In this document: positions 14,552 to 57,773 of the stretch, piece after piece
Position numbering within the stretch: position 1 is the first letter of the stretch
How the letters are laid out: each line of letters begins with the position of its first letter
NCBI GenBank assembly: GCA_018817715.1
Contig: JAHITT010000006.1
Span: 11,147 to 75,146, forward strand
DNA from: Patescibacteria group bacterium
GTDB lineage: Bacteria; Patescibacteriota; Patescibacteriia; Veblenbacterales; UBA10138
Reading direction: 5' to 3'
DNA length: 64,000 bases
Made by a program: the position numbers and the translations under genes
The notes under the pieces: model-generated
Databases searched by the model: none
The model's input: the letters and a program-made list of their open reading frames with translations, nothing else
What the model was told of the DNA's origin: nothing

Positions 14552-14553
14552 TT

Positions 14554-16101: not shown

Positions 16102-16105
16102 AGAT

Positions 16106-17632: not shown

Positions 17633-17633
17633 T

Positions 17634-18848
17634 ATGCCTAAATACATAAAGCAATTAACCAGAGAGAATACTTTATTGGATAGGGCTTTTAGGACTATAG
17701 CTTATGCCAAAAGCCTTCCGGAAATAGGTCGGGCTAAAATAAAAAAAAGCCCCATAGTTGGTTTTGGTCGGGTGACTTCTTTGTATTATGATCCAGTGGA
17801 TTACAAAAAACAACAATCTATAATAATGAAAGAATTTTCTGGACAGAATATTAAGGTAATGTCCTATGAAATCATTAAGTATTTAGAGAAGGGTTATATT
17901 TGGGCCAAAAAAGTAAGTAACAACAGATTAACTAAAGCTGATTTGATTGATTTGATAAAAGATTTTAATTATTGCCACGCTCATGCCAGGGGAGCTATTG
18001 TTTATGGTTATTGGGGAGAACCAGTTATAACAAAATTATTAAAAAACAGTCTTAAAGTTAAAAAAGATAAATTAGATGAGATAGTGTCTGTTTTATCAAC
18101 TCCCCATAAAATAGCCGGCCCTTTAAACAAACTACATAAAACTTCTTCGTTTTTGTATCAAAAAAGAAACGAATTGATTAAATCTTTAAAGTTGACAGGT
18201 AGACAAAATGAATTAGTTGAGATTTTATCTTGGTTTACTTTATTTTATGAAATGGGCGAGAGGGTGTCTGGTTCTATATATAGTTTGCTTTTGAAAAAAA
18301 TTAACCAAATTTTAAAAAAAGATAAAATATATAAGGATATTGATTGGTACGATCCTCAATCTTTAATTACATATTTATCTAAAGGGAAAGCATTATCAAA
18401 GAAGGAATTAAGTAGCAGAAAAGTTTGTTATATATTATTTGTTAAAAAGGATGGGCTAAGAGTTATCAGCGGGCAGTCCGCTTTAAGACAATATAATAAA
18501 ATTTTCAAAGAAAAATTTAATACTAACGTTAGTTTGTTAAAAGGCACAGTGGCTTGCGCTGGCAATGCTAAAGGAAAAATTAAAATAGTGATAACCAAAC
18601 AAGATCAAGCGAAATTTAAACCAGGTGATATTTTAATTTCTACTATGACCACACCTAATTTAATGGGTGCCGTTAAAAAGGCTGCGGCTATAGTAACCGA
18701 TGAGGGTGGTATGACTGCTCACGCTGCCATAATTAGCCGAGAATTAAATATTCCTTGTTTGGTAGGTACTAAAGTAGCTACCAAAGTGTTTAAAGATGGA
18801 GATTTGGTGGAAGTAGATGCTAATAATGGTATAATTAAGAAAATTTAG
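17634..18848 (+). CDS. PEP-utilizing mobile-domain protein, paralog 4 (shorter, most divergent)
   Basis: The ATG at 17634 lies 2 nt after the paralog 3 stop, whereas the track ORF starts inside the upstream gene. C-terminus GGMTAHAAIISRELNIPCLVGTK. The N-domain is about 100 aa shorter than in the other paralogs. Confidence 0.7.
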   Translation: MPKYIKQLTRENTLLDRAFRTIAYAKSLPEIGRAKIKKSPIVGFGRVTSLYYDPVDYKKQQSIIMKEFSGQNIKVMSYEIIKYLEKGYIWAKKVSNNRLTKADLIDLIKDFNYCHAHARGAIVYGYWGEPVITKLLKNSLKVKKDKLDEIVSVLSTPHKIAGPLNKLHKTSSFLYQKRNELIKSLKLTGRQNELVEILSWFTLFYEMGERVSGSIYSLLLKKINQILKKDKIYKDIDWYDPQSLITYLSKGKALSKKELSSRKVCYILFVKKDGLRVISGQSALRQYNKIFKEKFNTNVSLLKGTVACAGNAKGKIKIVITKQDQAKFKPGDILISTMTTPNLMGAVKKAAAIVTDEGGMTAHAAIISRELNIPCLVGTKVATKVFKDGDLVEVDANNGIIKKI

Positions 18849-18852
18849 TCTT

Positions 18853-20379
18853 ATGTCTAAAAAATCATTAAACAATAAAGATGTTTGGATGTTGGCCGAA
18901 GATATTCCGGATATAGATTTATTTTTTGCTCAAATTTGGTTGTCGGCTTTTGTTAATGATATGTCTAAGTCAGTCGGGACTAATTATCAAGAAGTGATGT
19001 GTGTGTTTAAGGGTACCAACATCAAGTTTTATTATAAACAAAAAGACTCAGAAAGGTTTTCTAATCATGTTTTTAATTTAATTAAAAAAAGTCCGGCCTT
19101 TGGAGAAAAAATTAACAAACAAATCAAATTACATACGGATGGGTTGGTGGCTTTGGCGGAAGAAGTCAGGAAAATTAATCTTAAAAAATTAACTAATAAA
19201 GAATTGTGGCAGATTTGGCAAAAACATGATGATATCCATACAGAACTTTATATTTGGGGTTGGTTACCTAATGTTACAGATATGTTTCATAGTAACTTCA
19301 CTCATTATCTGCAATCTTATTTAAACAGTTGTGGGGTTGAAGAAGATTTAATTAATGAATATTTGGTAGTATTAACTAATCCTTCGGCCAAAAGCGTTAT
19401 AAATCAGGAAAGGGAGGAATTCTTAAAATTAGTTGAAGAAATAAAAAAGGTTAAGGCTTTTAAAAAACTTCTTAAATTATCGCCAAGCCAGTTTATAAAA
19501 AAATTACCACTTAGTCGCCGGGTGTTGCTACAGCGCCATTGGGAAAAGTGGCATCATTTAAAATATAATTTTATTGGACCTAAAGTAACAACCTTGGAAG
19601 AATATGCTGAAGAGATACAAAAATTATTATTAAGCGGGATTAATCCTTATAATTTATTAAAGCAAGAAGTAGAAAAAAGAGTTTTGTCTGTTAAAGAAAA
19701 AAATAAATTATTGGCTAAAATTAAACCAGATAAAAAGCATCTGGCCTTGTTTGAATTATGGGGCCATTTTATGTTGACTAAATTTTATAGGCGAAATGGT
19801 CAAATAAGAGCTGTAGCCATATTTAATAATTTATTAAAAGAAACAGCTAGAAGATTGGGTATTTCTTTATTACAAGTTAGGTTGATGTTGAATAGTCAGG
19901 TTAAACAAGGATTGCTTAATAAGAAGGTTAATAAAAAAACGCTTAAAAAACAGAGTCAGTTGGCTGTTTATTGGAGTGCTAAAAACCGGGAATATTTATA
20001 TATTGGAAATAAAGCACAAAAATTTATTAAGACTATACCGCAGGATGGTAATCATGAGGTCGCCGAGCTTAAAGGGCAGTGTGGTAGTTTAGGTAAAGCT
20101 AGTGGTACAGTTAAGTTAATTTTTAGACCGCGTGATATTCCTAAAATGTCTAAAGGCGACATATTGGTTTCGGCGGCTACTGATCCTGATATTGTGCCGG
20201 CTATGAAATTGGCGGGGGCTATTGTAACGGATCAAGGTGGTGTTACAGCTCATGCCGCCATTGTGGCGCGGGAATTAGGTATTCCGTGTTTAATTGGTAC
20301 CAAAATAGCCACTAAAGTTTTTAAAGATGGAGATAGGGTAGAGGTAGACGCTACCAAAGGGGTGGTTAAAAAGTTATAA
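18853..20379 (+). CDS. PEP-utilizing mobile-domain protein, paralog 5
   Basis: GGVTAHAAIVARELGIPCLIGTK C-terminus. Paralog motifs HLKYNFIGP and KFYRRN...LKETARRLG. Confidence 0.8.
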   Translation: MSKKSLNNKDVWMLAEDIPDIDLFFAQIWLSAFVNDMSKSVGTNYQEVMCVFKGTNIKFYYKQKDSERFSNHVFNLIKKSPAFGEKINKQIKLHTDGLVALAEEVRKINLKKLTNKELWQIWQKHDDIHTELYIWGWLPNVTDMFHSNFTHYLQSYLNSCGVEEDLINEYLVVLTNPSAKSVINQEREEFLKLVEEIKKVKAFKKLLKLSPSQFIKKLPLSRRVLLQRHWEKWHHLKYNFIGPKVTTLEEYAEEIQKLLLSGINPYNLLKQEVEKRVLSVKEKNKLLAKIKPDKKHLALFELWGHFMLTKFYRRNGQIRAVAIFNNLLKETARRLGISLLQVRLMLNSQVKQGLLNKKVNKKTLKKQSQLAVYWSAKNREYLYIGNKAQKFIKTIPQDGNHEVAELKGQCGSLGKASGTVKLIFRPRDIPKMSKGDILVSAATDPDIVPAMKLAGAIVTDQGGVTAHAAIVARELGIPCLIGTKIATKVFKDGDRVEVDATKGVVKKL

Positions 20380-20386
20380 TTTATTT

Positions 20387-21937
20387 ATGAAAAAGCAGCA
20401 AAATATTTATACTTTTAGTAATATTAAAAAAGTTAGGTGGGGGGTGCTGGAAGAAAATCAACCCATTCATCTTTTTCCAGTAATGTATCCTTGTTGGTGT
20501 GGTATTGTTAAGGATGTGGGGAAGATTTTAGGTAAACCACAAACTAACATCATCAACTTCAATCATTATGATAAAAGTACAATATTCATTGATCATGATG
20601 AGTGGAATAAATTAGGCCTTTTTACTTTGCGTAAAATTTTACGAGATCCTAAGTGGGGATTTTACATAAGTAAAAAAATTATCAAACTTTCTGATATTTT
20701 GACTAAGTTTACTAGTCAAAAAATACATAAAGTAGATTTAACCAAAAAAACTAATCAGCAATTATATCATTTGTACAAGGAGTATCTAGATAAAGATGTT
20801 GTTGCATATAATTATGCCGCCATACCTGTGTATTTGGATTTATATAAACCTCATTTAACAACATATTTATTAAAATATTTAGATAAGCTTATATCTAAAT
20901 TAGATTATAAAATGACAGCTCGGGAGTGTTTTGTTGGTTTAACTATGCCAGTTGGGTTATCTAAGGTACAAAACGAAGAACTTGATTTATATAAATTAAC
21001 CATCAAAATAAAATCATTTATCAAGAACAATAAATTACCAAAGCTTTCTCAATTATCTGGGAGGAGTTTAAATTTATTCAAAAAGCACACGGATAAATAT
21101 AGATACTTGGGTTATAATTGGGAAGGGCCGGCCTTTTCTGATTATTATTTTTGGAAAAGATTAGAAAATTTATTTAAAGATAAAGTCACTCCACAAACAA
21201 AAATTAAGGATTTTTTTGCCAATAAGAAAAAAGGTATAAGGCTAGCTGAAAAAATAAAGAAGGACTTACATATTGATAATAAACATAATAAGTTGTTGGA
21301 GCTGACTAAACATATAATTTATTCAAAAGAGTATCGAAAAATGGCTTTTGTACAGTCGTATTATGAGGTGGAGAAATTATTAAAGGAGATAGCTGATAGA
21401 TTGTCATTAAGTTTGGATGAAGTTAGGGTGAGCTTATTAACTGAAGTCAGATTAATGTTAACCAGCAAGCTAACCAGACCAAAAGAACTATCAGATAGAA
21501 TAGAGGGGCATTTATTTGTGGTTTTGAGCCAAAAATTACCTGGTCGGGTTTTTACGGATAATCTTTATTTAAAGACCAAGGAATATTTATTAAAGCGACA
21601 GGATTTACACGAAATTAATTATTTCCACGGGCAGACAGCTTGTTTAGGTAAAGCTGAGGGTCTAGTTAAAATAATTAATTCAGTTAAGGATATTGGAAAA
21701 ATGAGAAAAGGGGATATTTTAGTTTCTACTCAGACAAATCCTGATTTAGTACCAGCCATGCGTAAAGCAGCCGCTATAGTGACTGATTTAGGTGGTATAA
21801 CCTGCCACGCAGCTATTGTTTCCAGAGAATTAGGAATACCTTGTGTTATTGGTACTAAAGTGGCTACCAAAGTGCTTAAAGACGATGATAGGGTAGTGGT
21901 GGATGCTAGTAGAGGCGAGATTAAAAAGATTAATTAA
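20387..21937 (+). CDS. PEP-utilizing mobile-domain protein, paralog 6
   Basis: GGITCHAAIVSRELGIPCVIGTK C-terminus. Paralog motifs YLGYNWEGP and KEYRKM...LKEIADRL. Confidence 0.8.
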   Translation: MKKQQNIYTFSNIKKVRWGVLEENQPIHLFPVMYPCWCGIVKDVGKILGKPQTNIINFNHYDKSTIFIDHDEWNKLGLFTLRKILRDPKWGFYISKKIIKLSDILTKFTSQKIHKVDLTKKTNQQLYHLYKEYLDKDVVAYNYAAIPVYLDLYKPHLTTYLLKYLDKLISKLDYKMTARECFVGLTMPVGLSKVQNEELDLYKLTIKIKSFIKNNKLPKLSQLSGRSLNLFKKHTDKYRYLGYNWEGPAFSDYYFWKRLENLFKDKVTPQTKIKDFFANKKKGIRLAEKIKKDLHIDNKHNKLLELTKHIIYSKEYRKMAFVQSYYEVEKLLKEIADRLSLSLDEVRVSLLTEVRLMLTSKLTRPKELSDRIEGHLFVVLSQKLPGRVFTDNLYLKTKEYLLKRQDLHEINYFHGQTACLGKAEGLVKIINSVKDIGKMRKGDILVSTQTNPDLVPAMRKAAAIVTDLGGITCHAAIVSRELGIPCVIGTKVATKVLKDDDRVVVDASRGEIKKIN

Positions 21938-21941
21938 ATAT

Positions 21942-23474
21942 ATGAAGTATCAGTTATTACATCAAGAAACTTCTGTTACACCTCTAACTTTGGGTATGAA
22001 TCACCGGGGATTTCATCATCGCCTGCATACGAAATATACTAGACCTTTTTATTTTAAAGATAGCGTAATTGTTTATAAAAATTATAAGGTTGATTGGTAT
22101 GGTGATATAGATAATTTTTGTGAACTGGGTCAAAAAGTTATTGATAATGTTAAAAAAGACAAAACATTTAGCAAGCGTTTGTTATTAGATGTGGTTAAGA
22201 TTGGACAAGAGTTAGATGAATTGGATAGCATAATAATTAGTGAAAATTTTGCACGATTGACAAAACTAAATTTGCTAAATCAATTTAAAAAATTATTTAA
22301 ATTGTCTTATGATATTTGTGATTTGGGTGCAGTAGCAGTTTATCCTGATTTAAGACATTATAAATTATCAACATTACTTAAGAATATTATTAAGGAAAAA
22401 ATAGTTAAATACAATTTACCTAGAAAAACTAATGACTACTTTTCAATATTAATTACACCTACAATTACTGGTTTGGTGCAGCGGGAAAAGAATGTCATAC
22501 AAGAATTAGCAATTGAAATTCAGAGAGATAAAGCGCTAAAAAATGATTGGCTTAGGTTGAAAGCTAAAGACGTTTTAAAGAAACAAGCAGGCCACCTGCA
22601 CAAAACTATTGATAGTTTATATAAATTATATAGTAATTATCGATGGTCAGCTTTTGGGCAATTAGGGCCAAGTAAAACATTGGATGATTATATCGTTGAC
22701 ATAAAAAGCGAAATAAAAAATCCAATTTTAAAAAAACAAATATTAGAAGCTAAAAAACATTTAAATCAGATATTTAAACTTCAAAATTTATATTATAAAG
22801 AACTTCGTTTGACTAAAGTAGAAATTAACCTGTTTAAAGCGGCTCGAGATTTTAGTGAAAACAAGGTTTATAGATTTGATATTTTACTTAAAACTTGGTT
22901 AGCACTTGATTTGCTTTTGAGAGAAATTGCCAACAGAACAAAATATACGGTTAATGATTTAAGATTTATGTCTCCAGAGGAGATTGTTAGTTTATTAACT
23001 GGTCGGAAAATAATTCCAATTAGTATAATTAAAAATAGGCAAAAATTTTGTTTGACACTTATTAAGAATAATTCAATTATCCATTTAACAGGGGAGCAAG
23101 CCAAATCATACCTACGCCATAATATAGAAGCGGAAAATATTCAAAATAACATTAAGACATTGCATGGTAGTGTGGCTTATATGGGTCGGGTTAGCGGACG
23201 AGTAAAAATAGTTAATAGTCCTAAGGATATTAGTAAGGTTAAAAAAGGAGATATTTTAGTTTCTACTCAGACAAATCCAGATTTATTGCCGGCCATGCGA
23301 AAAGCTGGAGCTTTTGTAACTGATGTAGGTGGTATAACCTCCCATGCTGCTATTGTGGCTAGGGAATTAAAGAAACCTTGTATAATAGGTACAAAGATTG
23401 CTAGTAAAATATTTAAAGATGGTGATAGAGTAGATGTAGATGCTATTAAAGGTAATGTAACATTAATTAAATAA
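21942..23474 (+). CDS. PEP-utilizing mobile-domain protein, paralog 7
   Basis: Start moved to the ATG at 21942, after the TAA at 21935-21937. C-terminus GGITSHAAIVARELKKPCIIGTK, with the canonical TSH form of the catalytic His motif. Confidence 0.75.
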   Translation: MKYQLLHQETSVTPLTLGMNHRGFHHRLHTKYTRPFYFKDSVIVYKNYKVDWYGDIDNFCELGQKVIDNVKKDKTFSKRLLLDVVKIGQELDELDSIIISENFARLTKLNLLNQFKKLFKLSYDICDLGAVAVYPDLRHYKLSTLLKNIIKEKIVKYNLPRKTNDYFSILITPTITGLVQREKNVIQELAIEIQRDKALKNDWLRLKAKDVLKKQAGHLHKTIDSLYKLYSNYRWSAFGQLGPSKTLDDYIVDIKSEIKNPILKKQILEAKKHLNQIFKLQNLYYKELRLTKVEINLFKAARDFSENKVYRFDILLKTWLALDLLLREIANRTKYTVNDLRFMSPEEIVSLLTGRKIIPISIIKNRQKFCLTLIKNNSIIHLTGEQAKSYLRHNIEAENIQNNIKTLHGSVAYMGRVSGRVKIVNSPKDISKVKKGDILVSTQTNPDLLPAMRKAGAFVTDVGGITSHAAIVARELKKPCIIGTKIASKIFKDGDRVDVDAIKGNVTLIK

Positions 23475-23476
23475 AT

Positions 23477-24082
23477 ATGATTAAGCTTATTATTTTTGAT
23501 TTGTATGGTCTTATATTAAGTTCGGGTTATCCAGATACTTCCAAATATCTGGCTAAGAAGTTTGGTGGAGATTGGCGGGATTATCAGGCCATAATATATA
23601 AAAAGTATTTTAACCAGGCGGCGGTACGACAAATAACTCAAAAACAGGCTTGGGTTTTGGCGGCTAAAGAATTAAAGTTACCGATTTCTTGGCAGGAGTT
23701 AAGAAAAATACATTATAAACTAATGACCTTGGATAAGCGGTTGGTTAAGTTAGATAAGGAATTAAACAAAAAAGGTTATATTACTTTAGTGCTTTCCAAG
23801 AATACCCGTAGTCAATTGGCCGATAACTGTAAGCGTTTTGGAATTAAAAAAATATTTAAAAATGTGATTAATACTTGGGAACTTAATTTACCTAAAGCCA
23901 GTAAAAAAACATTGGCCTTGGTTTTAAAGCGTTTTAAGGTTAAGCCGGAAGAGGTTATTTATGCGGATGATCAAAAGGCTAATTTAGTAGACGCTAAAGA
24001 AATGGGCATTAAAACAATTTTTGTTAAGAATTATCAGCAGTTTAAAAAAGAATTGGATGGTTATCTTTCTTATGATAAATAA
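23477..24082 (+). CDS. HAD-superfamily hydrolase-like protein (non-canonical motif I)
   Basis: N-terminal LIIFDLYGLIL is a HAD motif-I position but reads D-L-Y rather than DxD. C-terminal IYADDQKANLVDAKEMGIKTIFV is HAD motif-IV-like. 201 aa, embedded in the paralog array. Confidence 0.5.
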   Translation: MIKLIIFDLYGLILSSGYPDTSKYLAKKFGGDWRDYQAIIYKKYFNQAAVRQITQKQAWVLAAKELKLPISWQELRKIHYKLMTLDKRLVKLDKELNKKGYITLVLSKNTRSQLADNCKRFGIKKIFKNVINTWELNLPKASKKTLALVLKRFKVKPEEVIYADDQKANLVDAKEMGIKTIFVKNYQQFKKELDGYLSYDK

Positions 24083-24107
24083 ATTTAAAGAAAAAGGTTG
24101 GCGTTTA

Positions 24108-25568
24108 ATGTCTCAACGACAAAGGTTAAGCCCTTTCCCTAACTATATGTCTATGGAAGCTATGACGGGTTTAGTTAAGGAGTATGTTGGTGAAAATATA
24201 GATTGGCTGGTTTTATTTTTTGAAGACAGGATAATGAATGGGTTTAGTCCGTCTAAATCTTTTTTTGCTTCAGCTAATGATATTGTGAATAGGCTGGAGA
24301 ATAATCCTGGTATTTATGCTGATTTAATTAAAAAGCAGAATTATTGGGGAAAAAAATTGGTTAAACACGCTAAATTGAGTTTTAATAAAGTAGATAGTAC
24401 AAGTACGGCTCGAGATTTGTATAATTTTTGGATGAATTTTGAACGTATTTATAAACAGGTTTATGCTACTTATGGATCAGTTTGGATGATAGAGGATGTT
24501 TTTAATAATCGTTTATTACAGATAGTTAAAGAAAGGATTAGTAATGAAGTAAAATCTGTGGAGTTGCTTAATCTTTTGACATTACAACCAAAAGCTATGG
24601 TAGCGAGATTGGAAAAACAGGCTTTGTTAGAAGTGGCTGTTAAAATAGGTATTCGTTCTGGTTGGCGGCAGCAAGTTTTAAAAGGCAATTTTAAATCATT
24701 TGATAAAGGTTTAGTTGCTTTGATAGTTAAACACGAACGTGATTATTTTTGGGTAACTAGGGATTATGAGGATCCTATTTTGGACAAAGAAAGGATTATC
24801 AGCAAACTAAAAGACGTTTTACGAGAGAATTATAAAACTAACTTATTAGCCATGAAAAAAGAGTTGGTTAAATGGCGACAGCAGCAAGATTTTTTGACAA
24901 AGAAATTGCAATTGACTAATAAGGAAAAAAAGTTATTCTCGGCTATGCAGGATGTAGCTTACTTGAAGGAATTACGTAAGCATTATGTTTCAGAATCTTT
25001 ATATTATTTTGATAGGGTCTTATTGGAAATCGGCCGCCGTAGTTGTTTAAGTATTAAACAAGTTAGATTTTTAAAAACAGAAGACTTAAGCAGTGTTTTA
25101 TTTAGTAAAAAAGATTTTAGTAAAACAATTAATGATAGAATAAAATTATCTGTTTGGATAAGTCATCAAGGTAAAACAAAAGTAATAACTGGTAAAAAGG
25201 CTGAAATTTTAAAGAAAAAATTTATTCAAAAACCAAAAAATCTTTTGGAATTTATAGGTACCCCGGTGAGTCCTGGCAAAGCCCGTGGTCCAGTTAAAAT
25301 AGTATTGAATCCAGATGAGTGTTCTAAGGTTAAAAAAGGGGATATTATCGTTAGTATTCAAGTCGTGCCTAGTTTTTCAGCAGCCATTCAACGAGCGGCT
25401 GGTTTAATTTGCGATGGTGGACATGGCATTACTACTCATCCTGCTATTTTAGCTAGAGAAGCTAAAATTCCAGCAATTATTCAAACTAGGTTTGCTCGAG
25501 AAGTTTTAAAAGATGGTGATATAGTGGAGGTTGATGGTTATAAAGGTATGGCAAGAAAAATAAAATAA
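24108..25568 (+). CDS. PEP-utilizing mobile-domain protein, paralog 8 (divergent)
   Basis: The ATG at 24108 lies after the HAD gene stop at 24082. C-terminus GGHGITTHPAILAREAKIPAIIQTR with the His retained. Paralog motif KELRKH...LLEIGRR. Confidence 0.7.
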   Translation: MSQRQRLSPFPNYMSMEAMTGLVKEYVGENIDWLVLFFEDRIMNGFSPSKSFFASANDIVNRLENNPGIYADLIKKQNYWGKKLVKHAKLSFNKVDSTSTARDLYNFWMNFERIYKQVYATYGSVWMIEDVFNNRLLQIVKERISNEVKSVELLNLLTLQPKAMVARLEKQALLEVAVKIGIRSGWRQQVLKGNFKSFDKGLVALIVKHERDYFWVTRDYEDPILDKERIISKLKDVLRENYKTNLLAMKKELVKWRQQQDFLTKKLQLTNKEKKLFSAMQDVAYLKELRKHYVSESLYYFDRVLLEIGRRSCLSIKQVRFLKTEDLSSVLFSKKDFSKTINDRIKLSVWISHQGKTKVITGKKAEILKKKFIQKPKNLLEFIGTPVSPGKARGPVKIVLNPDECSKVKKGDIIVSIQVVPSFSAAIQRAAGLICDGGHGITTHPAILAREAKIPAIIQTRFAREVLKDGDIVEVDGYKGMARKIK

Positions 25569-25610: not shown

Positions 25611-26474
25611 CTAAATTTCAGTTGCTATTTTTTCTATATTTTTACCTACGGGCTTAGCTTTTTTCTTATTTTGTCCATAAAAATCCAGCCTCACCCCTTC
25701 GGCATTTTCCACTTCGCCAACTTTTTCTAAAGGAATATTTAATTCATCAGCTACTATTAAGGAAGTCATTGAAGCGTGGCTATTGGCAATGTAAACTATT
25801 CTTTTTTCTTGACCTTTGTTAGACAACCAATCAGCTATTTTTTCCACTTTAGCCATATCAATATTTTTTCTTTTTAACATTTGGCTTTTAGTTTCAACTG
25901 CTGTAGGAATTTCATCATCTGGTGTTAAAGCCCAAGCCACAATTTCATCTTTGGCTCCTAATTTTTCTTGGTAAGAAGTATCTCCCAATTTTTTTCTAAA
26001 ATCTGGCTCATGTTCAATACCTTGAATACCTTTTAATCTTTTTTCTACACCCGGCCCAGCTTCGGTTGGTATATTTTCTCCTTTCCATTCATAGGCGCTC
26101 TTTGGTAAGTCTATTTGGTCAGGCCTAGCGCCCAGTTCAATTAAAGTATCATTCATTACCCAGTCTTGCTCGCAAGTGCGATCAGTTTTTGAATCACGAA
26201 TAAATAACTTTATTTTATCTAAGGATTTTTGTAAAACTTCGGCATAGGCTTGTTTGTTGTTCCAATCTTTAAAATCCGATTGTTCGTCGCTTATAATCTG
26301 TTTGGCAATATTAGTAATGGTTTCTTTTACTTGTTCACGACCCTTATCAGTTAAACCTCGTTTGGGATTAGTTTTATCTTTACCAGATTCGCCGTGACGG
26401 ATAAGATAAACAGTTATATTTGGTTGTTCTTTTAATACTTCTTTGGATTCTGTAAATAATTGTTTTTCATTCAT
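25611..26474 (-). CDS. histidine phosphatase superfamily (PGAM/SixA-like) protein
   Basis: N-terminal YLIRHGESGKD (RHG catalytic motif) and a downstream ANSHASM second-His motif. 287 aa. Confidence 0.6.
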   Translation of the reverse strand: MNEKQLFTESKEVLKEQPNITVYLIRHGESGKDKTNPKRGLTDKGREQVKETITNIAKQIISDEQSDFKDWNNKQAYAEVLQKSLDKIKLFIRDSKTDRTCEQDWVMNDTLIELGARPDQIDLPKSAYEWKGENIPTEAGPGVEKRLKGIQGIEHEPDFRKKLGDTSYQEKLGAKDEIVAWALTPDDEIPTAVETKSQMLKRKNIDMAKVEKIADWLSNKGQEKRIVYIANSHASMTSLIVADELNIPLEKVGEVENAEGVRLDFYGQNKKKAKPVGKNIEKIATEI

Positions 26475-26584: not shown

Positions 26585-27298
26585 TTATTTTGTAAATATT
26601 TTTTCCAGATGTTTTACTTCATCCGGTAGACGAAATTCTTCAACAGATACCGGAACAGCAATTCCATTATTAACGTCGAAAGTGTATATAAGGCCTTCGC
26701 AAGTTGATAAGGGACCGCCAATTGAACCAACAGATATGTTTTGCGGATAAACTTCTTTTACATCGTATGTTAGAGCTTTAATTAAAGAGCCAACAGCTTC
26801 TACAGCTACTCCGTGGCGGCAGCAAAGTATATTTGTGTTTTCTGTGCATCCTGCGGCATAAGCTAACATAGCTTGTACCTGTTCTGAGGCTCGTTTAAAC
26901 ACATAATCGCGTATTTCGCCGGGTTGGGTTAGGAAAACATGTTCCACTGTCATAGAGTTTTCTTTTTCCAATTGTTTGGCAATTTTAATTAAATTTTTGG
27001 CGTTGGGGTCTGAACCGATGTCGTCAAAAATAAGATCGGTTTTTACATCAAAGCTATGTCCAAGAGTGTCAAGGATAATTCGGGCTAGTTTCCAAGCGCG
27101 GGGTTGAGGACTAGTAATAGCTTTTTGAAACTTCACGCCAGAAAATTTTAGAATAGAAGCAACTATGTAGCTCGTCATCAAGCCGTATAAAGTAGGATTT
27201 TGATCCTTCTTTATTTTGTCTTGAAGGGTAGCATTTTGATCTTCAGCTGCTTTTTGTCTTTCGTAGTGACGGAAATCATAAATTTTTACAGTTGCCAT
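26585..27298 (-). CDS. hypothetical protein
   Basis: 237 aa ORF with an AAGGTG Shine-Dalgarno 6 nt upstream of the ATG. No confident family assignment. A mid-protein CCRHG segment was noted but is not diagnostic. Confidence 0.4.
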   Translation of the reverse strand: MATVKIYDFRHYERQKAAEDQNATLQDKIKKDQNPTLYGLMTSYIVASILKFSGVKFQKAITSPQPRAWKLARIILDTLGHSFDVKTDLIFDDIGSDPNAKNLIKIAKQLEKENSMTVEHVFLTQPGEIRDYVFKRASEQVQAMLAYAAGCTENTNILCCRHGVAVEAVGSLIKALTYDVKEVYPQNISVGSIGGPLSTCEGLIYTFDVNNGIAVPVSVEEFRLPDEVKHLEKIFTK

Positions 27299-27513: not shown

Positions 27514-28461
27514 ATGAAAATAACTTTTAGTTTACCTTTTTCCAAAATTAGCAAAAAAGACGTTAGCTTAGCTGGTGGTAAGGGTGCTAGTTTAGGCGAA
27601 ATGGCCAAGGCCGGCATTCCGGTGCCGCCGGGTTTTGTGGTACTGGCCACAGCTTTTAATAGGTTTTTACAGGAAACGGATTTAGAGCAAGATATTCAAG
27701 CCCAGCTTAATAAAGTTAATTATCACGATGTCAATTCGGTTGATAGATATTCTAATGTTATAAGGGCAATGATTACCAAAGCTAAAATGCCTAAAGATTT
27801 GCAAGAAGAAATAGTAAAAGAGTTTAAAAAATTAAAAGTTAAATATGTGGCAGTTCGTTCTTCAGCCACAGCCGAAGATTCTAGTTCAGCTTCGTGGGCG
27901 GGGGAGTTAGAAACTTATTTAAATACCACTGACAAGGATTTGTTAAAGAGAGTTAAGGACTGCTGGTCTTCGCTGTTTACACCACGGGCTATTTTTTATC
28001 GGCATGAAAAAAAATTGCATAAAGTTAAAGTGGCGGTGGCGGTGGTTGTGCAGGCCATGGTGCAGTCGGAAATTTCTGGCATTGCTTTTACAGTTCATCC
28101 TGTTACCAAAGATAAAAAACAAATGATTATTGAAGCTGGTTATGGTTTGGGGGAATCTATTGTTTCTGGACAAATAACTCCCGATGCTTATGTAGTCAGT
28201 AAAAAGGATTTATCTTTAATAGATATAAATATTGCTGAACAAACTAAAAAATTAATAGGTTTACCTGGTGGAGGAAATAAGTGGATGGGTTTGAATAAAA
28301 AAGACGGTAGTAAGCAAAAATTAACTGGCAAACAAATAATAGAATTATCTAAAATTTGTTTGCATATAGAAAAGCATTATAAATTTCCCTGTGATATAGA
28401 ATGGGCTTTGGTAAAAAATAAATTTTATATAACCCAATCTAGACCTATTACCACTTTATAA
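27514..28461 (+). CDS. stand-alone PEP-synthase/PPDK N-terminal ATP-grasp domain protein (PPDK_N-like)
   Basis: Collinear with the E. coli PEP synthase N-terminus: GGKGASLGEM...GIPVPPGF, VRSSATAEDSSSASWAGELETYLN, DIEWALVKNKFYITQSRP. The ORF stops where the mobile His domain would begin. Confidence 0.85.
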   Translation: MKITFSLPFSKISKKDVSLAGGKGASLGEMAKAGIPVPPGFVVLATAFNRFLQETDLEQDIQAQLNKVNYHDVNSVDRYSNVIRAMITKAKMPKDLQEEIVKEFKKLKVKYVAVRSSATAEDSSSASWAGELETYLNTTDKDLLKRVKDCWSSLFTPRAIFYRHEKKLHKVKVAVAVVVQAMVQSEISGIAFTVHPVTKDKKQMIIEAGYGLGESIVSGQITPDAYVVSKKDLSLIDINIAEQTKKLIGLPGGGNKWMGLNKKDGSKQKLTGKQIIELSKICLHIEKHYKFPCDIEWALVKNKFYITQSRPITTL

Positions 28462-28472
28462 ATTCATATTAC

Positions 28473-28500
28473 CATTCCACCCATTCGCGCGAATGGGGGA
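28473..28500. repeat. GC-rich palindromic repeat copy 1 (CATTCCACCCATTCGCGCGAATGGGGGA)
   Basis: Stem CCCATTCGCG/CGCGAATGGG. It lies immediately 3' of the PPDK_N gene. A near-identical copy is at 57774-57801. Confidence 0.6.
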
Positions 28501-28556
28501 TAGGTTAAAGTAATATATACCAATTTGGTAGGATTTATGCTATAATTGTAAAACCT

Positions 28557-28961
28557 ATGTTTTTTCAACTATCTGCCAAGGCCGAATACGGCTTAATGAT
28601 GCTGAAACATTTAGCCGCTCTTAAACCTAAGGAATTAGGTTGTTTAAGGTCTATTGCTAAGGAACAGAATTTACCTATTAAATTTTTGGAAAGGATTGCT
28701 TCGGATTTATTAAAAGCTGGTTTAGTAATTAGTCAGCCTGGTAGTGCCGGTGGTTATCGTCTTAAAAAATCGGCTAACCAAATAAAACTGTCTGAGATTC
28801 TAAGCGCTTTAGGTGAGGATGTTACCCCGACGGTGTGTAAACACGACGGCAATTGTTGTAAGCGTCAATCAGCTTGCCCTAATAAAACCGGTTGGTTAAA
28901 AGTACAAAAAGATTTAGCTAAAATAATCAATGCTTATAGATTAAGCGATCTAATTAATTAA
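28557..28961 (+). CDS. Rrf2-family transcriptional regulator (IscR/SufR-like, probable Fe-S sensor)
   Basis: N-terminal wHTH AEYGLMMLKHLA...LRSIAKEQNLPIKFLERIASDLLKAGLVISQPGSAGGYRL and a C-terminal Cys cluster CKHDGNCCKRQSACP. Confidence 0.75.
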   Translation: MFFQLSAKAEYGLMMLKHLAALKPKELGCLRSIAKEQNLPIKFLERIASDLLKAGLVISQPGSAGGYRLKKSANQIKLSEILSALGEDVTPTVCKHDGNCCKRQSACPNKTGWLKVQKDLAKIINAYRLSDLIN

Positions 28962-28972
28962 TTTTTTATTTT

Positions 28973-29572
28973 ATGTTTACTTTACCCAATTTACCTTACA
29001 GTTATGATGCTCTAGGGCCCCATTTAGACAAACAAACTATGGAATTGCATCATACTAAGCATCATGCTACTTACGTGAACAAATTGAACGAAGCTTTGGC
29101 TAAAGCACCACAGTTGAAGGAAAAATCCATTGAGTGGTTACTAACTAATTTAAGTGAAGTGCCCGAAGATATTAGAACTGCGGTAGTTAATCACGGTGGC
29201 GGGCATTATAACCATAGTTTATTTTGGCAAATGATGTCACCGGATAAAGTAGAGCCACCTGTTGAATTAGTTTCTGTTATTAATAATAATTTTGGTTCTG
29301 TAGAAAAATTTCAAGAACAATTTAATCAAGCGGCTGTTAGTTTATTTGGTAGCGGTTGGGTTTGGTTGGTAAAAAAAGCCGATAATAATTTGGCGATAAC
29401 AACCACCTTTAATCAAGGCAGCCCGCTTAGTCAGGGTTTGCAGCCGTTATTGGGTTTGGATGTTTGGGAGCATGCTTATTATTTGAAGTGGCAAAATAAA
29501 CGGGCTGATTATGTGGCCACTTGGTGGCAGGTAGTTAATTGGCCAGTGGTGGCTAAGAATTTGCTTAGTTAA
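28973..29572 (+). CDS. Fe/Mn superoxide dismutase
   Basis: LPNLPYSYDALGPHLDKQTMELHHTKHH and the C-terminal DVWEHAYYL motif. Metal-ligand His/Asp residues conserved. Confidence 0.9.
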   Translation: MFTLPNLPYSYDALGPHLDKQTMELHHTKHHATYVNKLNEALAKAPQLKEKSIEWLLTNLSEVPEDIRTAVVNHGGGHYNHSLFWQMMSPDKVEPPVELVSVINNNFGSVEKFQEQFNQAAVSLFGSGWVWLVKKADNNLAITTTFNQGSPLSQGLQPLLGLDVWEHAYYLKWQNKRADYVATWWQVVNWPVVAKNLLS

Positions 29573-29579
29573 ATAGGCA

Positions 29580-30323
29580 ATGTCCTTGTTAAGAATTAGC
29601 CGTTTAAGTTTAACGGTTGAGACTAAGCCGATATTAAAAGATTTTAATTTAACTATTAACAAAGGTCAGGTACAAGCTTTGGTTGGGCCTAACGGTTCTG
29701 GTAAAAGCAGTTTGGCTGCTTTGTTAATGGGTCAGCCGGCTTATCAGTTAACTTACGGCCAACTATTTTTTAATGGAAAAAATTTATTAAACTTAAAACC
29801 AGCCGAACGCTCTAAGGCTGGTTTGTTTGTGGCTTGGCAAAATCCCATTAGAGTGTCTGGTTTAAACGTGGAGGAATTTTTAATAAAACTTTTTAGGATG
29901 CATTCGTCAGCTAGTCAAAGAAGTTGGCCGATAATTAAAGTTAGGCAGCAGATTATTAAACAAGCGCGCCGGTTTAAAGCTGTGGATTTGTTGGCCCGTG
30001 ATTTAAACGACGGTTTGTCTGGTGGCGAACAGAAACGTTTAGAAGCTTTACAAATGGCTGTTATTAAGCCGAAGTTGGCGATTCTTGATGAAATAGACTC
30101 AGGTTTAGATATGGCTAGTCTTGGGGCTGTTAGCCGTTTAATTAGGGAGTTAAATAAGCAAGGCACGGCTTTTTTGATTATTTCCCATCATTGGCGCTTA
30201 TTAAAAGAGGTTAAAGCCCAATCAATTAATGTTTTATTAAAGGGTAGTGTTGTGGCCAGTGGTGGCTTAGAGTTAATAAACACCTTAAACCGTCGGGGTT
30301 TTAAAGATTGGTTAAAGGAATAA
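29580..30323 (+). CDS. sufC: Fe-S cluster assembly ATPase SufC
   Basis: ABC ATPase with Walker A GPNGSGKSS, signature LSGGEQKR and Walker B ILDEIDSGLD. Its operon position is before sufB. Confidence 0.85.
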   Translation: MSLLRISRLSLTVETKPILKDFNLTINKGQVQALVGPNGSGKSSLAALLMGQPAYQLTYGQLFFNGKNLLNLKPAERSKAGLFVAWQNPIRVSGLNVEEFLIKLFRMHSSASQRSWPIIKVRQQIIKQARRFKAVDLLARDLNDGLSGGEQKRLEALQMAVIKPKLAILDEIDSGLDMASLGAVSRLIRELNKQGTAFLIISHHWRLLKEVKAQSINVLLKGSVVASGGLELINTLNRRGFKDWLKE

Positions 30324-30328
30324 ATTAT

Positions 30329-31726
30329 ATGCCGGTTGTTGATAGGGATTTTGTAATTAAGCGCGGACAGTGGGTAGATAAAATAAAACCGTTAGAAAAA
30401 ATAGGCCTTGGTTTGTCGGATAATATAATTAGGCAGATTTCTGGTTTTAAGCAGGAGCCTGATTGGATGCTCAAAAGGCGTTTGCAGGCTTTTAGAATTT
30501 TTAAACAAAAAAAATATCCTCAGTGGGGGCCGGATTTGTCTAAACTTAATTTTAATAAAATTTGTTATTATTCTCGAATTAATTACAGCAGCCAATCAAC
30601 TTGGGCTAATATTCCCTCGCCAGTTAAAAAAACTTTTGAACGTTTGGGTGTGCCTAAATTAGAAGCGGCTGTTTTGGCTGGTAGCGGTTTGCAATATGAT
30701 TCGGAAATAGTTTACCAAGCTTTGCAAGCTGATTTAAAAAAAATAGGCGTGATTTTTTTAAGTATGGAGCAAGGTTTAAGGCAATATCCTAAACTAGTAA
30801 AAAAGTATTTTGGGCAGGTGGTGCCGGCCAGGGATAATAAATTAGCCGCCTTAAACAGCGCTGTTTGGTCGGGCGGCAGTTTTATTTATGTGCCACCCGG
30901 TCTAAAAGTGTCTAAGCCGCTGCAGGCTTATTTTCGTTTAAATGCTCGTAATTTAGGCCAATTTGAGCGGACTTTAATAATCGCTGATAAAAATAGTGAA
31001 TTGGAATATATTGAAGGATGCACGGCGCCTTATTTTAACGTGGATTCTTTACACGCCGCTGTGGTGGAGATTGTTGTGGAAGCGGGCGCTAAGGTTCGTT
31101 ATACTACGGTTCAAAATTGGTCCACTAGTGTTTATAATTTGGTTACTAAACGCGCCTTGGTAAAAAGGAATGCTTATATGGAATGGTTAGATGGTAATTT
31201 TGGCAGTCGGGTAACTATGAAATATCCGTCTATAATTTTAAGTCAACCTGGTGCCAAGGGTAAAATTGTTTCTTTGGCTGTGGCTGGCAAGGGGCAGGTG
31301 ATCGAAACCGGCGCTAAAGCTATTCATTTGGCGCCCTTAACCAGTTCACAAATTATTTCTAAATCTATTGCTTTGGCCAAGGGTCGTACTAATTATCGTG
31401 GTTTGTTAAAAATAACGCCAGCCGCCAACAATAGCCGGAGCAGTGTGTGCTGTGACGCTTTATTATTATCGCCCCAGGCGCGATCGGATTCTTACCCCAA
31501 GGTAGATGTTAAAAATCAAAAAGTTCACCTAGAGCACGAAGCTAGTGTAGCCCGTTTAAGTCAAGAGCAGTTGATTTATTTGCAAAGCCGAGGATTTTCC
31601 AAAAGTGAAGCTGTTAACTTGATTGTTAATGGTTTTGTGGCTCCGGTTCGTCAGGCTTTGCCAGCCGAATTCGCTATTGAGCTGGAAAAGCTTTTGGATT
31701 TGGAAATGGAAGAAGCGGTGGGTTAA
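30329..31726 (+). CDS. sufB: Fe-S cluster assembly protein SufB
   Basis: About 465 aa. AAGGAA RBS 9 nt before the ATG at 30329. C-terminal SufB/SufD beta-helix motifs and the SRGFSKSEAVNLIVNGF tail. Confidence 0.85.
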   Translation: MPVVDRDFVIKRGQWVDKIKPLEKIGLGLSDNIIRQISGFKQEPDWMLKRRLQAFRIFKQKKYPQWGPDLSKLNFNKICYYSRINYSSQSTWANIPSPVKKTFERLGVPKLEAAVLAGSGLQYDSEIVYQALQADLKKIGVIFLSMEQGLRQYPKLVKKYFGQVVPARDNKLAALNSAVWSGGSFIYVPPGLKVSKPLQAYFRLNARNLGQFERTLIIADKNSELEYIEGCTAPYFNVDSLHAAVVEIVVEAGAKVRYTTVQNWSTSVYNLVTKRALVKRNAYMEWLDGNFGSRVTMKYPSIILSQPGAKGKIVSLAVAGKGQVIETGAKAIHLAPLTSSQIISKSIALAKGRTNYRGLLKITPAANNSRSSVCCDALLLSPQARSDSYPKVDVKNQKVHLEHEASVARLSQEQLIYLQSRGFSKSEAVNLIVNGFVAPVRQALPAEFAIELEKLLDLEMEEAVG

Positions 31727-31747
31727 TTATTTTTTTTAGTTTATTTA

Positions 31748-32404
31748 ATGGGTACTGTAAAACAAATAATCATTAATAAAAAGCAGATTAGGCATTTTGA
31801 TTTGTCTAACTTTTTGCCAGATAAAATAGAATTTAAATTAGCGGCCGAAGCTGTGCTACGGTTAAATAATAGTTCGGCTTTTAGCTTTAAACATTTGCAT
31901 TTTATTATTGGTTTAAGGGCCAGAGTAGATTTTGATTGTTTGTTTAAACAATTGGTTGGTAAAAGACAATATTATGTAACAGCTGATTTAATGGGCGCTT
32001 ATAGTCAATTAAACGTTAATTTATTGCATAATGGCCAAGACCAATCAGAAGCTGATTATTTTTTAACAATAAATCATCAGGCGGCTAATAGTTTTTCCAA
32101 AATTACAATTCGTCGTTTATTGCAAGGTCGGGCCCGTTCAAATCTTTATGGTTTGGTAAAGGTTTGGCCACAAGCTAAAGCGGTGGATTCATTTTTATTA
32201 GATAAAACTTTGTTAATGGGTCGTAGGGCGCAGGTTGTATCCAAACCGGATTTAAAAATATTAAATAACCAAGCTGCTGTTTATCATGGAGTGACTGTTA
32301 GCCGTCCCGACCATAAAGAAATTGACTATTTGACCAGTCGAGGTTTTACCAACCGGCAGGCTCTTAATTTAGTCGTTCAAGGATTTATTAAAGGAAAAAA
32401 TTAA
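31748..32404 (+). CDS. SufD-like protein (short form, C-terminal core only)
   Basis: 218 aa. Tail SRGFTNRQALNLVVQGFIKG parallels the SufB tail. Canonical SufD is about twice this length. Confidence 0.5.
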   Translation: MGTVKQIIINKKQIRHFDLSNFLPDKIEFKLAAEAVLRLNNSSAFSFKHLHFIIGLRARVDFDCLFKQLVGKRQYYVTADLMGAYSQLNVNLLHNGQDQSEADYFLTINHQAANSFSKITIRRLLQGRARSNLYGLVKVWPQAKAVDSFLLDKTLLMGRRAQVVSKPDLKILNNQAAVYHGVTVSRPDHKEIDYLTSRGFTNRQALNLVVQGFIKGKN

Positions 32405-32446
32405 AGCGTTTGCCTAAAAATATTTATCCTTATAGAATAACTAGGT

Positions 32447-33661
32447 ATGGATTTACATAATATTCGTCAGCAGTTTCCTTTGTTTAATCAGCCAGCCAAT
32501 AAGGATTTGGCTTATTTTGATAATGCCGCTTCAACACAAAAGCCAGAAGTTGTTTTAAAGGCTATGGATGAATTTTATCGTACAACTTACGCTAATGTTC
32601 ATCGGGGTGTTTATAAAATAGCCGAACAAGCCACGGCTAAGTTTGAAGGTGTTCGGGCAGCTACGGCTGATTATTTAGGCGCTGCTTCAGCTAATAATAT
32701 AGTTTTTACCCGTAATGCTACGTCAGCTTTGAATCTTTTAGCACAAAGTTATAGCCGTACTTTAAAACCAGGAGATGAGGTTGTATTAACCGAAATGGAG
32801 CACCATGCCAATTTAGTGCCTTGGCAACAGGCGGCCAAGCATAATGATTTAGTTCTTAAATTTTTACCAGTTAATCAAAACGGCCGTCTGGAATTAGATA
32901 AATTATCTGTTTTGATAAATAAAAAAACTAAAGTTGTTAGTTTAACAGCTATGTCCAATGTCTTGGGTACTATGCCGGAGCTTAAAGAAATAATTTCTTT
33001 AGCTAAGTCTGTGGGGGCGCGAGTAATAGTGGATGCTGCTCAGGCTTTACCGCATAAATATTTAAACGTTAAAGAATTGGATTGTGATGCTTTGGTTTTT
33101 ACAGCCCATAAGTTTTTTGGACCTTCTGGTTTGGGTATTTTGTACGCCAGTCAGGAATTATTGGAGATTATGCCGCCGATTGAATACGGCGGGCATATGA
33201 TAGCGGAAGTTAATTGGTATGATTCTACTTGGGCCGAGCCACCAACTAAATTTGAAGCTGGTACGCCACCGATTGCCGAAGTAATTGGTTGGGGCGAGGC
33301 TTTAAATTTTATTAAGCAGTTGGATTGGGTGGCTGTGGAAGCTTATGAAAAAAATTTAACAGAGTATGGTTTAAAATTATTAACTGCTTTACCAGGTTTA
33401 ACAATTGTTGGACCAGAAGATAGTTTGGCGCGTGGTCCAGTATTTGCTTTTAGTTTAGATAAAGTTCACCCCCATGATTTAGGTAGTTGGTTGGATTCTT
33501 TAAATATTGCCGTGCGGTCCGGACATCATTGTACCCAGCCTTTGCATCGTAAATTCGGTTTATTAGCTACGACTCGAGCCAGTTTATCTATTTATAATAC
33601 TCCAGCCGAGTTAGACAGATTGGCTGACGGTATTAAACAAGCTCAAAAAATGTTTACTTAA
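32447..33661 (+). CDS. sufS: cysteine desulfurase SufS (class V aminotransferase fold)
   Basis: YFDNAASTQKP, the PLP-lysine region FTAHKFFGPSGLG and the active-site loop RSGHHC. Confidence 0.85.
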   Translation: MDLHNIRQQFPLFNQPANKDLAYFDNAASTQKPEVVLKAMDEFYRTTYANVHRGVYKIAEQATAKFEGVRAATADYLGAASANNIVFTRNATSALNLLAQSYSRTLKPGDEVVLTEMEHHANLVPWQQAAKHNDLVLKFLPVNQNGRLELDKLSVLINKKTKVVSLTAMSNVLGTMPELKEIISLAKSVGARVIVDAAQALPHKYLNVKELDCDALVFTAHKFFGPSGLGILYASQELLEIMPPIEYGGHMIAEVNWYDSTWAEPPTKFEAGTPPIAEVIGWGEALNFIKQLDWVAVEAYEKNLTEYGLKLLTALPGLTIVGPEDSLARGPVFAFSLDKVHPHDLGSWLDSLNIAVRSGHHCTQPLHRKFGLLATTRASLSIYNTPAELDRLADGIKQAQKMFT

Positions 33662-41536: not shown

Positions 41537-41541
41537 TATTT

Positions 41542-41936
41542 GCCAAACATATTCTATAAGCCGAATTCTGTATCCCGCGAACGCGGGACGATAGTTATCT
41601 ATCTAGATCGCTTTTCGCAAAGCGACTCAAGCTACCAACCCGCTCCCGCCAAGGCGGGAGCCTATTTGGTATTGCACCGAGTAGAGTTTGCCTAGCCTTT
41701 ATTGTCGCCAATAAAGCTGGTGAGCTTTTACCTCACCGTTTCACCCATCACTCCCGCCAAAAGGCGGGGGCTGGTTTGTTTTCTGTTGCACTTGTCCTGC
41801 TAATCAGGTTAAAAACTGATTAACGGTTCCTGTTAGGAATTACTCTTCCCTAAAGACGGGAACGCTATGGTGTTCGGACTTTCCTCTCCTTACCCTTATA
41901 AAGAGTAAAGGAGCAACTATCCGAATAAGCTTGGCC
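41542..41936 (-). ncRNA. rnpB: RNase P RNA (bacterial type A)
   Basis: The minus strand contains GAGGAAAGTCCGAAC (P4 5' strand) and CAACAGAAAACAAACC. It also contains GGGTGAAACGGTGAGGTAAAAGCTCACCAGC (P10.1/P11 universally conserved block) and ACAGAATTCGGCTTAT (P4 3' strand). A P1 helix is formed by GCCAAGCTTATTC/GAATATGTTTGGC. About 395 nt. Confidence 0.8.
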
Positions 41937-57749: not shown

Positions 57750-57773
57750 CTTGTTATTCTGGACAGTGTTTAT

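Follow-up and report, generated by a model that had tools for sequence, protein, structure and literature searches.

A free-standing ATP-grasp gene of Patescibacteria as the probable shared subunit of a split RPH-like dikinase

The stretch of DNA analysed here, hereafter called the window, is a 64-kb section of a Patescibacteria group bacterium genome (contig JAHITT010000006.1, positions 11,147 to 75,146 of the forward strand; all coordinates below are those of the window). On its plus strand lies a free-standing gene for an ATP-grasp (PPDK_N) subunit of 315 amino acids (aa) at positions 27514-28461, and upstream of it an array of eight paralogous genes (13034-25568, +), the products of which all end in a swivel domain with a catalytic histidine. 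Because of the domain identity, the fold match to RPH, the catalytic residues, synteny, gene fusions and purifying selection, we read the ATP-grasp protein as the shared subunit of a split RPH-like dikinase and the products of the eight upstream genes as its alternative partner subunits, a reading to which we assign a probability of roughly 80%.

The free-standing ATP-grasp gene

The open reading frame (ORF) runs from an ATG start to a TAA stop codon, and its assignment draws on Pfam and phmmer searches, AlphaFold2 (AF2) modelling with Foldseek, homologues and dN/dS ratios. PF01326 (PPDK_N) was the sole Pfam domain detected (E = 1.2e-97, profile positions 2-311 of 328). A first-pass annotation, made from the sequence alone, had described the ORF as the whole nucleotide-binding domain of phosphoenolpyruvate (PEP) synthase, terminating exactly at the domain boundary; the complete domain and all motifs quoted there were found in the translation, and the statement on the boundary is literally true. 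A phmmer search against the Protein Data Bank (PDB) aligned residues 5-314 with 5HV6, the crystallised isolated ATP-grasp construct of Listeria RPH (327 residues including the tag), up to the last residue of that construct (...SRPITT). The end of the ORF coincides with the domain boundary because the alignment runs to the end of the construct, one residue before that of the ORF, and is followed by just L315 and the stop codon.

[quoted passage not shown] Residues K23, R115 and T134 of the ORF align to Lys22, Arg117 and Thr136 of RPH, which position ATP and are required according to mutagenesis (PMC4844700). At the sequence level, the best PDB match was the PEP synthase 8A8E (E = 4e-67), archaeal-type PEP synthases scoring highest, and the bit scores against solved structures amounted to 230 for PEP synthase, 209 for RPH and 173 for HpeI. 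The best NCBIfam match was also a PEP synthase (NF005057, E = 2.9e-101). All NCBIfam models of PEP synthase and RPH, however, gave partial matches far below their cut-offs, with 339.8 bits versus 598 and 331 versus 739.75 for the PEP synthase models (TIGR01418, NF005057) and 291 versus 999 for the RPH model NF041857 (RIF_Ptrans_rph); the first of these scores falls so far short because the match spans just the first 337 of 798 profile positions. On these comparisons we assign the ORF as an I-type component, that is, the predicted counterpart of HpeI and PpsB or of RPH residues 1-316.

A word-indexed protein search with the ORF returned 7980 relatives, the best 120 of which were examined. All of these 120 were 311-345 aa long, contained PF01326 only and were 70-100% identical to the ORF, and those with named sources came from Patescibacteria (Kerfeld-, Falkow- and Veblenbacteria, among others); the 100% identical match, KKC17_03200, belongs to a 'Patescibacteria group bacterium' and lies on a 531-kb contig. 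Free-standing homologues of this length in Patescibacteria number more than 100 and range from 59 to 89% identity. Comparison of the ORF with three homologues gave dN/dS ratios of 0.05, 0.06 and 0.12, with dS near saturation. The ORF represents an intact, strongly constrained gene family and not a pseudogene of the PEP synthase gene pps. Downstream, 95 nt separate its stop codon from the next gene, which encodes an Rrf2 regulator (start 28557). Six-frame translation of 28441-28620, a check of the kind proposed in the first-pass annotation for a frameshifted continuation into the mobile domain, revealed stops in every frame and no remnant of a swivel or TIM-barrel domain.

Upstream paralogs, synteny and gene fusions

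The eight upstream genes encode candidate H-type subunits with a C-terminal PF00391 swivel domain (E = 1e-16 to 1e-27) and a first portion of approximately 400 aa without a Pfam match. In the order of the array, and all on the plus strand, they comprise paralog 1 (13034-14551, 505 aa, KPYRR starting at residue 306 and GGITCHAAI at 459), paralog 2 (14554-16101, 515 aa), paralog 3 (16106-17632, 508 aa), the short and divergent paralog 4 (17634-18848, about 404 aa), paralog 5 (18853-20379, 508 aa), paralog 6 (20387-21937, 516 aa), which was chosen for modelling and has H474 as catalytic His, paralog 7 (21942-23474, about 510 aa from ATG 21942, mechanical ORF start 21903) and paralog 8 (24072-25568, about 498 aa from ATG 24072, mechanical ORF start TTG 24021). 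The catalytic His is kept in all eight, embedded in GGxT[C/S/A]HAAI in seven of them and in the variant GHGITTHPAI in paralog 8. Mean pairwise identity among the paralogs reached 56% in the swivel but 20% in the N-terminal substrate domain.

Residues 302-513 of paralog 6 align by sequence with residues 654-864 of RPH, and K314-E315-Y316-R317-K318 falls on R666-E667-Y668-P669-K670 of RPH, on a helix in which Arg666 and Glu667 are essential for the second phosphotransfer (PMC4844700). The corresponding K-x-Y-R-K/R motif is present in seven of the eight paralogs. A fold comparison was needed because by sequence just the last ~100 aa of the substrate domain and the swivel align to RPH; it returned RPH as the closest solved structure to the paralog model. 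These proteins appear to be RPH minus its ATP-grasp and not pieces of a PEP synthase; as probable RPH-type substrate-binding and swivel proteins, they give no reason to expect a TIM barrel. Matches to the PRK08296 models ('hypothetical protein', ~570-630 aa), presumably a PpsA/HpeH-like family, although this is our unverified guess, were limited to the swivel.

For paralogs 2, 5 and 6, other genomes contain orthologues with 38-50% identity in the substrate domain, compared with ~25% to their siblings in the window, and therefore the array is an old set of distinct specificities and not a recent amplification. Taken singly, the orthologues of paralog 2 are listed with 34-44% identity in the N-terminal domain and those of paralog 5 with 36-40%. 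The substrate-domain family is very large, as an exhaustive search with a hidden Markov model (HMM) recovered 4075 clusters at 50% identity with E<=1e-3 and 2540 with E<=1e-10. Paralog 4 departs from its siblings: its true start is probably ATG 17634 (mechanical ORF start TTG 17559), about 85 aa of the N-terminal domain are missing, and at ~100 aa less than the other members it retains an intact swivel (GGMTAHAAI). The substrate-domain HMM did not recognise it, and its N-terminal part had no relative among 139 swivel proteins of related loci. 'Swivel-only' proteins of 340-470 aa are present at many other loci and, together with paralog 4, suggest a second class of partner subunit.

For the analysis of gene neighbourhoods, 94 related loci were gathered; 91 of them and the window were scanned with HMMs for the three domains, and the remaining three were read from precomputed gene and Pfam tables. 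A scan of genome contigs with the single protein yielded 8 loci, and a metagenome scan with an alignment yielded 80, which were used for the statistics. Among 71 complete-looking standalone ATP-grasp genes, 52 were accompanied by one or more swivel genes on their contig piece. When at least 5 kb were available on both flanks, 30 of 36 loci carried between one and eight swivel genes, which in every case shared the strand of the ATP-grasp gene and often lay 2-16 nt away. Each locus contained one ATP-grasp gene, and the array of eight in the window was the largest. The module recurs across Kerfeld-, Falkow-, Veblen-, Staskawicz- and Doudnabacteria. One contig labelled 'uncultured Gammaproteobacteria bacterium' (L007, CAZNIO010000003.1) carries a CPR-type locus (CPR, candidate phyla radiation, i.e. 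Patescibacteria) with a standalone PPDK_N gene 69% identical to the ORF and seven swivel genes, and is probably a mis-binned or mislabelled contig of a metagenome-assembled genome.

Both components were also found joined in single proteins. Fifteen of the 94 loci contain 16 fused ORFs, none with a TIM barrel, in which the swivel is always C-terminal and thus arranged in the order of RPH and not in that of PEP synthase. A further example from the search with the N-domain HMM is P0231 (829 aa), with PPDK_N at residues 17-315 (59% identity to the ORF), the N-domain at 330-714 and the swivel at 752-822. In L059 (1350 aa), L082 (1752 aa) and L086 (1172 aa), one ATP-grasp domain is followed by two to three swivel modules, making them candidate one-to-many polypeptides. 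Such giant single-ORF calls (L059 2146-6198, L082 10007-15265, L086 3876-7394, P0165 with 1500 aa and P0166 with 2309 aa) combine either one ATP-grasp with two to three substrate/swivel modules or three to four substrate/swivel modules together, and may be real fusions or gene calls merged over weak stops. A rough neighbour-joining tree placed the fused forms within one sub-clade of the family. Mean identity of the ATP-grasp domain across genomes was 74%, above that of the swivel and far above that of the substrate domain of the paralogs, a gradient that is expected if one ATP-grasp recognises many swivels.

Three phosphatase-like genes accompany the module. A HAD-IA family phosphatase of 201 aa (23477-24082, +; Pfam HAD_2/Hydrolase, NCBIfam HAD-IA) is located within the array. 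HAD genes reappear at 13 of the 36 well-flanked loci, and P0206 and L070 each show a fusion of HAD with an H subunit. The two minus-strand genes that separate the array from the ATP-grasp gene encode histidine-phosphatase-superfamily-like proteins, HP_A (25611-26474, 287 aa), with a borderline PF00300 match of 21.9 bits and a weak SixA-like match (E = 1e-4), and HP_B (26585-27298, 237 aa), with PF00300 at E = 4e-6 and again a weak SixA-like match; against the SixA cut-off of 74.5 bits, the two score 22 and 19. The pair occupies an equivalent position in L070, and the arrays of L001 and L002 include a faint His_Phos_1 gene; we count HP_A and HP_B only tentatively as part of the dikinase system. 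It is tempting to see in them a putative reset for phospho-His carriers. Small HD-domain proteins (weak matches) occupy similar positions in L092 and L094.

A probable shared ATP-grasp subunit and its alternatives

Dikinases divided in this manner have been characterised before. In phenylphosphate synthase, protein 2 (PpsB, 40 kDa) passes phosphate from MgATP to His569 of protein 1 (PpsA); HpeI with HpeH, PpsB with PpsA, and AcvB with AcvA are active only jointly, and the His mutant is dead; CreHI is another split dikinase, and the AcvAB operon includes the HAD phosphatase AcvF (bioRxiv 10.1101/2022.04.28.489975; PMC12167813). The best characterised of them is HpeHI, in which HpeI (9GOJ) shares homology with RPH's ATP-grasp and HpeH with its RIF-binding and swivel domains (PMC12167813). 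The free-standing PPDK_N protein singled out by the first-pass annotation is therefore confirmed as such but not unprecedented, given PpsB, HpeI, CreI and AcvB. Like the system described here, HpeHI (Rhodococcus), PpsAB (Thauera, Geobacter), CreHI and AcvAB combine a separate ATP-grasp protein (~40 kDa) with a partner consisting of an RPH-like substrate domain and a C-terminal swivel, and the HAD-IA gene within our array has its parallel in AcvF. The known enzymes convert ATP to AMP, Pi and a phosphorylated substrate in a ping-pong reaction through phospho-His, and a reaction of this type is proposed for the Patescibacteria system.

Several features set the two groups apart. The known two-component dikinases pair each I gene with a single H gene and serve aromatic catabolism in Actinobacteria and Proteobacteria, while the window has eight H genes for one I gene (one to eight in relatives), belongs to Patescibacteria and shows no aromatic-catabolic genes nearby. 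The ORF shares 30% identity with HpeI, less than the ~40-45% found within the subfamily of HpeI/PpsB and HpeH/PpsA, and scores higher to RPH and PEP synthase. HpeH and RPH carry Met at position -2 of the catalytic His, in contrast to the PEP synthase-type Thr of the paralogs, and the H subunits here measure ~500 aa instead of ~600-640 aa. RPH (Listeria 5HV1/5FBS) and the prodigiosin ligases PigC/RedH are single chains, while our system is split after the ATP-grasp and offers multiple alternative C-terminal partners; Glu667 of RPH is not conserved in the paralogs, and there is no evidence of rifamycin as a substrate. PEP synthase (EC 2.7.9.2, ~790 aa) and pyruvate phosphate dikinase (PPDK) have a homologous ATP-grasp and swivel, and GGxT[S/C]HAAI of the paralogs is identical to the PEP synthase consensus. 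In PEP synthase, however, the swivel is central and followed by a C-terminal PF02896 TIM barrel, whereas here it lies C-terminal to a helical RPH-type domain; moreover, the ORF has one-third of the length of PEP synthase, with no TIM barrel in the locus or the window. Of the PEP synthase frame proposed earlier, the homology of the ATP-grasp stands, but RPH and HpeHI are the proper reference and the paralogs appear RPH-type. We found no account of multi-paralog dikinase arrays in CPR in the literature; a CPR resistome survey merely mentions rph-like matches (PMC8651080). The free-standing PPDK_N subunit as such is of a known kind. The departures from the known systems lie in the gene ratio of 1:8 or, more generally, 1:n, in the swivel motif of PEP synthase type (T-x-H), in the HAD and His-phosphatase-like genes embedded at the locus and in its confinement to CPR.

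We infer phosphotransfer in trans, a single hub for all eight partners and the roles of the phosphatases. In the proposed cycle, which is patterned on RPH, phenylphosphate synthase and HpeHI, the ATP-grasp protein would bind MgATP, and the swivel of one partner would dock on it in trans. The swivel His of GGxT-x-H would then attack the β-phosphate, with AMP released and the γ-phosphate leaving as Pi; the ORF product would pyrophosphorylate or phosphorylate, in trans, the His on every partner's swivel. The charged phospho-His swivel would return to the substrate-binding domain of its own subunit, where the K-x-Y-R-K/R motif, the counterpart of RPH Arg666...Lys670, may position the phosphate for transfer to the bound acceptor. 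One ATP-grasp 'hub' could in this way charge up to eight 'spokes' of differing specificity, and the embedded HAD protein, possibly also the two His-phosphatase-like proteins, might strip phosphate from the products or from the carrier His. Since all characterised relatives use small molecules, the acceptors are most likely small molecules as well; that these are scavenged or detoxified by auxotrophic epibionts is a guess. A broader proposal is a CPR-specific 'hub-and-spoke' dikinase system of Patescibacteria, in which one ATP-grasp would charge a whole family of swivel His proteins in trans, each spoke with its own acceptor, and in which the effectively irreversible conversion of ATP to AMP and Pi would serve to capture or modify many scavenged metabolites, as an analogue of phospho-relays such as the phosphotransferase system (PTS) with HAD, HD and His-phosphatase partners. 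This proposal we advance tentatively, and we would lean slightly against it in its full form.

A number of observations weigh against a shared subunit with alternative partners. The case is built from sequence, synteny and models, and the proposal that a single ATP-grasp serves all eight partners from gene counts and fusions. In the window, two minus-strand genes and 1.9 kb separate the ATP-grasp gene from the array, which are thus not co-transcribed, and 6 of the 36 well-flanked loci lack any swivel gene up to 10 kb away. The position equivalent to RPH Glu667 varies among the paralogs (P/G/A/F/E/V/E), and paralog 4 does not have the K-x-Y-R-K motif. A search of the PDB with the substrate-domain profile gave no significant match, and the likeness to RPH outside residues 302-513 of the modelled paralog depends on a predicted structure. 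Finally, HpeH and HpeI formed no stable complex in vitro (PMC12167813), and interaction assays may be negative even if our reading is true. On the other side, the argument of the first-pass annotation that an ATP-grasp protein without an acceptor His needs the upstream His-domain paralogs is supported by same-strand synteny in 30 of 36 loci, by the fusions, by purifying selection and by the two-component homologues of RPH (PMC12167813).

Two alternative explanations would keep the gene within PEP synthase. According to one, it is a truncated or decaying pps, a pseudogene fragment that ends by chance at the domain boundary, as the best NCBIfam and PDB sequence matches to PEP synthases and the PEP synthase-like motifs quoted in the first-pass annotation might suggest; we give this almost no credence, since the score of 339.8 bits remains far from the cut-off of 598, more than 100 independent homologues with 72-89% identity share the length of 311-345 aa, dN/dS lies at 0.05-0.12, no remnant follows downstream and the nearest fused relatives have the RPH and not the PEP synthase order. 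A pps pseudogene is effectively refuted by the same-length homologues, the low dN/dS and the lack of a downstream remnant. The other holds that a genuine PEP synthase or PPDK has been split, with a swivel and TIM-barrel protein encoded elsewhere and the adjacency to the array being incidental. In sequence, both the ATP-grasp and the motif of the swivel (GGxT[S/C]HAAI, Thr at -2) are indeed nearer to PEP synthase than to RPH or HpeH, the genome was inspected over 64 kb only, and 6 of 36 loci are without a neighbouring swivel gene. However, HMMs for PPDK_N, the swivel and the substrate domain detected none outside the array and the ORF among all window ORFs of at least 70 aa, and Pfam assigned the remaining large ORFs to unrelated families, with no PF02896 in the 64-kb window. 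This agrees with the earlier remark that the eight paralogs provide the only His domains nearby, and the full-length pps elsewhere, which had been named there as a refutation, was likewise not encountered within the window; its presence elsewhere in the genome would not undermine the shared-subunit reading. Together with the same-strand RPH-type swivel neighbours in 30 of 36 loci and the 16 of 16 fused ORFs of RPH type without a TIM barrel, these results make a split PEP synthase very unlikely.

The remaining alternatives accept the pairing of the genes and differ in the acceptor. In a regulatory phospho-relay, the paralogs would be autophosphorylating His carriers acting on proteins or polymers, as do M. 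tuberculosis VadK, PTS enzyme I and glucan water dikinase, and would be reset by SixA-like phosphatases. VadK, which derives from PPDK, acts on enzymes as a regulatory His kinase (PMC13400623), and the adjacent pair of His_Phos_1-like proteins shows a weak similarity to SixA, a phosphohistidine phosphatase, although with matches far under the cut-off (22 and 19 versus 74.5 bits). As the paralogs retain a large RPH-type ligand-binding domain and the basic motif for phosphate positioning, and the characterised RPH, HpeHI, PpsAB, CreHI, AcvAB and PigC/RedH all use small molecules, we regard such a relay as improbable. The array could alternatively constitute a battery for the inactivation of antibiotics or toxins, with every paralog serving as an RPH-like resistance kinase against a different natural product from the host or the community, a sub-case of the shared-subunit reading. 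RPH is the closest solved structure, the substrate domains are diverse (20% identity) and rph-like matches occur in CPR resistome surveys (PMC8651080); yet several paralog subfamilies are conserved as orthologues across distant CPR lineages, a pattern more in keeping with core physiology than with accessory resistance, the RPH model gave 291 bits versus 999, and no PADLOC defence signal was obtained. We therefore consider this sub-case unlikely.

Surrounding sequence and implications for Patescibacteria

The region 3' of the ATP-grasp gene contains, as the first-pass annotation had noticed, a palindrome after the stop codon (CCCATTCGCGCGAATGGG, 28480-28497), followed by the Rrf2 gene. It forms part of a palindromic element (28472-28500, no strand assigned) with a second copy at 57773-57801, likewise just after a stop codon. 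The element, CATTCCACCCATTCGCGCGAAT(G/T)GGGG, is 27-29 nt long and occurs twice in the window, where 0 copies are expected by chance; both copies lie 10-25 nt past stop codons, those of the PPDK_N gene and of a pterin-4a-carbinolamine dehydratase gene. It is probably a transcript-end hairpin or a repeated element and not a coding remnant, and may represent a repeated terminator-like hairpin or a REP-like element. On the 5' side, where the PPDK_N gene and the His-phosphatase-like gene diverge, their intergenic region holds an inverted repeat (27337-27355/27377-27395; 19 nt, 95% complementary, 21-nt spacer), which has no other copy in the window, is not conserved in the syntenic locus L070 and could be an operator or a 5'-UTR hairpin.

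The genes at 28557-33661 (+), encoding the Rrf2 (IscR/SufR-like) regulator, the Fe/Mn superoxide dismutase SodA and SufC, SufB, SufD and SufS, form a compact operon for oxidative stress and Fe-S assembly that is unrelated to the dikinase module. In several other Patescibacteria genomes, this place directly after the standalone PPDK_N gene is taken by a type IV secretion-like cluster with PrgI, TraC-like and VirB4-like ATPase genes (L001 11031-15548, L003 11111-15658, L092 11036-15768). A link to anti-phage defence was not apparent, as PADLOC gave no notable match. The remaining features include ordinary housekeeping RNAs, namely RNase P RNA class A (236.7 bits), tRNA-Thr(CGT), tRNA-Gly(CCC) and tRNA-Gln(TTG), with RNA gene coordinates at 41541-41932 (-), 55180-55407 (-) and 58577-58648 (+), as well as two uncharacterised genes, one for an 851-aa DUF4012 protein (46852-49407, +) and a 485-aa ORF without a Pfam match (58961-60418, +).

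Patescibacteria have tiny genomes with few recognisable metabolic enzymes. Nevertheless, ~15 kb of the genome studied here are given over to a single ATP-grasp gene, eight diverged genes for dikinase partners and three phosphatase-like ones. If it is true that one ATP-binding subunit serves many substrate modules, this would be the first one-to-many case among swivel-domain dikinases and would point to many phosphorylated metabolites, or inactivated compounds, still to be explored where epibiont and host meet. Current annotations of such genes as 'PEP synthase', 'pyruvate, water dikinase' or 'PEP-utilizing enzyme' lead metabolic reconstructions to ascribe, wrongly, a capacity for gluconeogenesis to CPR genomes. 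Its organisation of one subunit to many partners and its prevalence in ultra-small bacteria make the system a worthwhile experimental target and call for a correction of the annotation in metabolic models of CPR bacteria.

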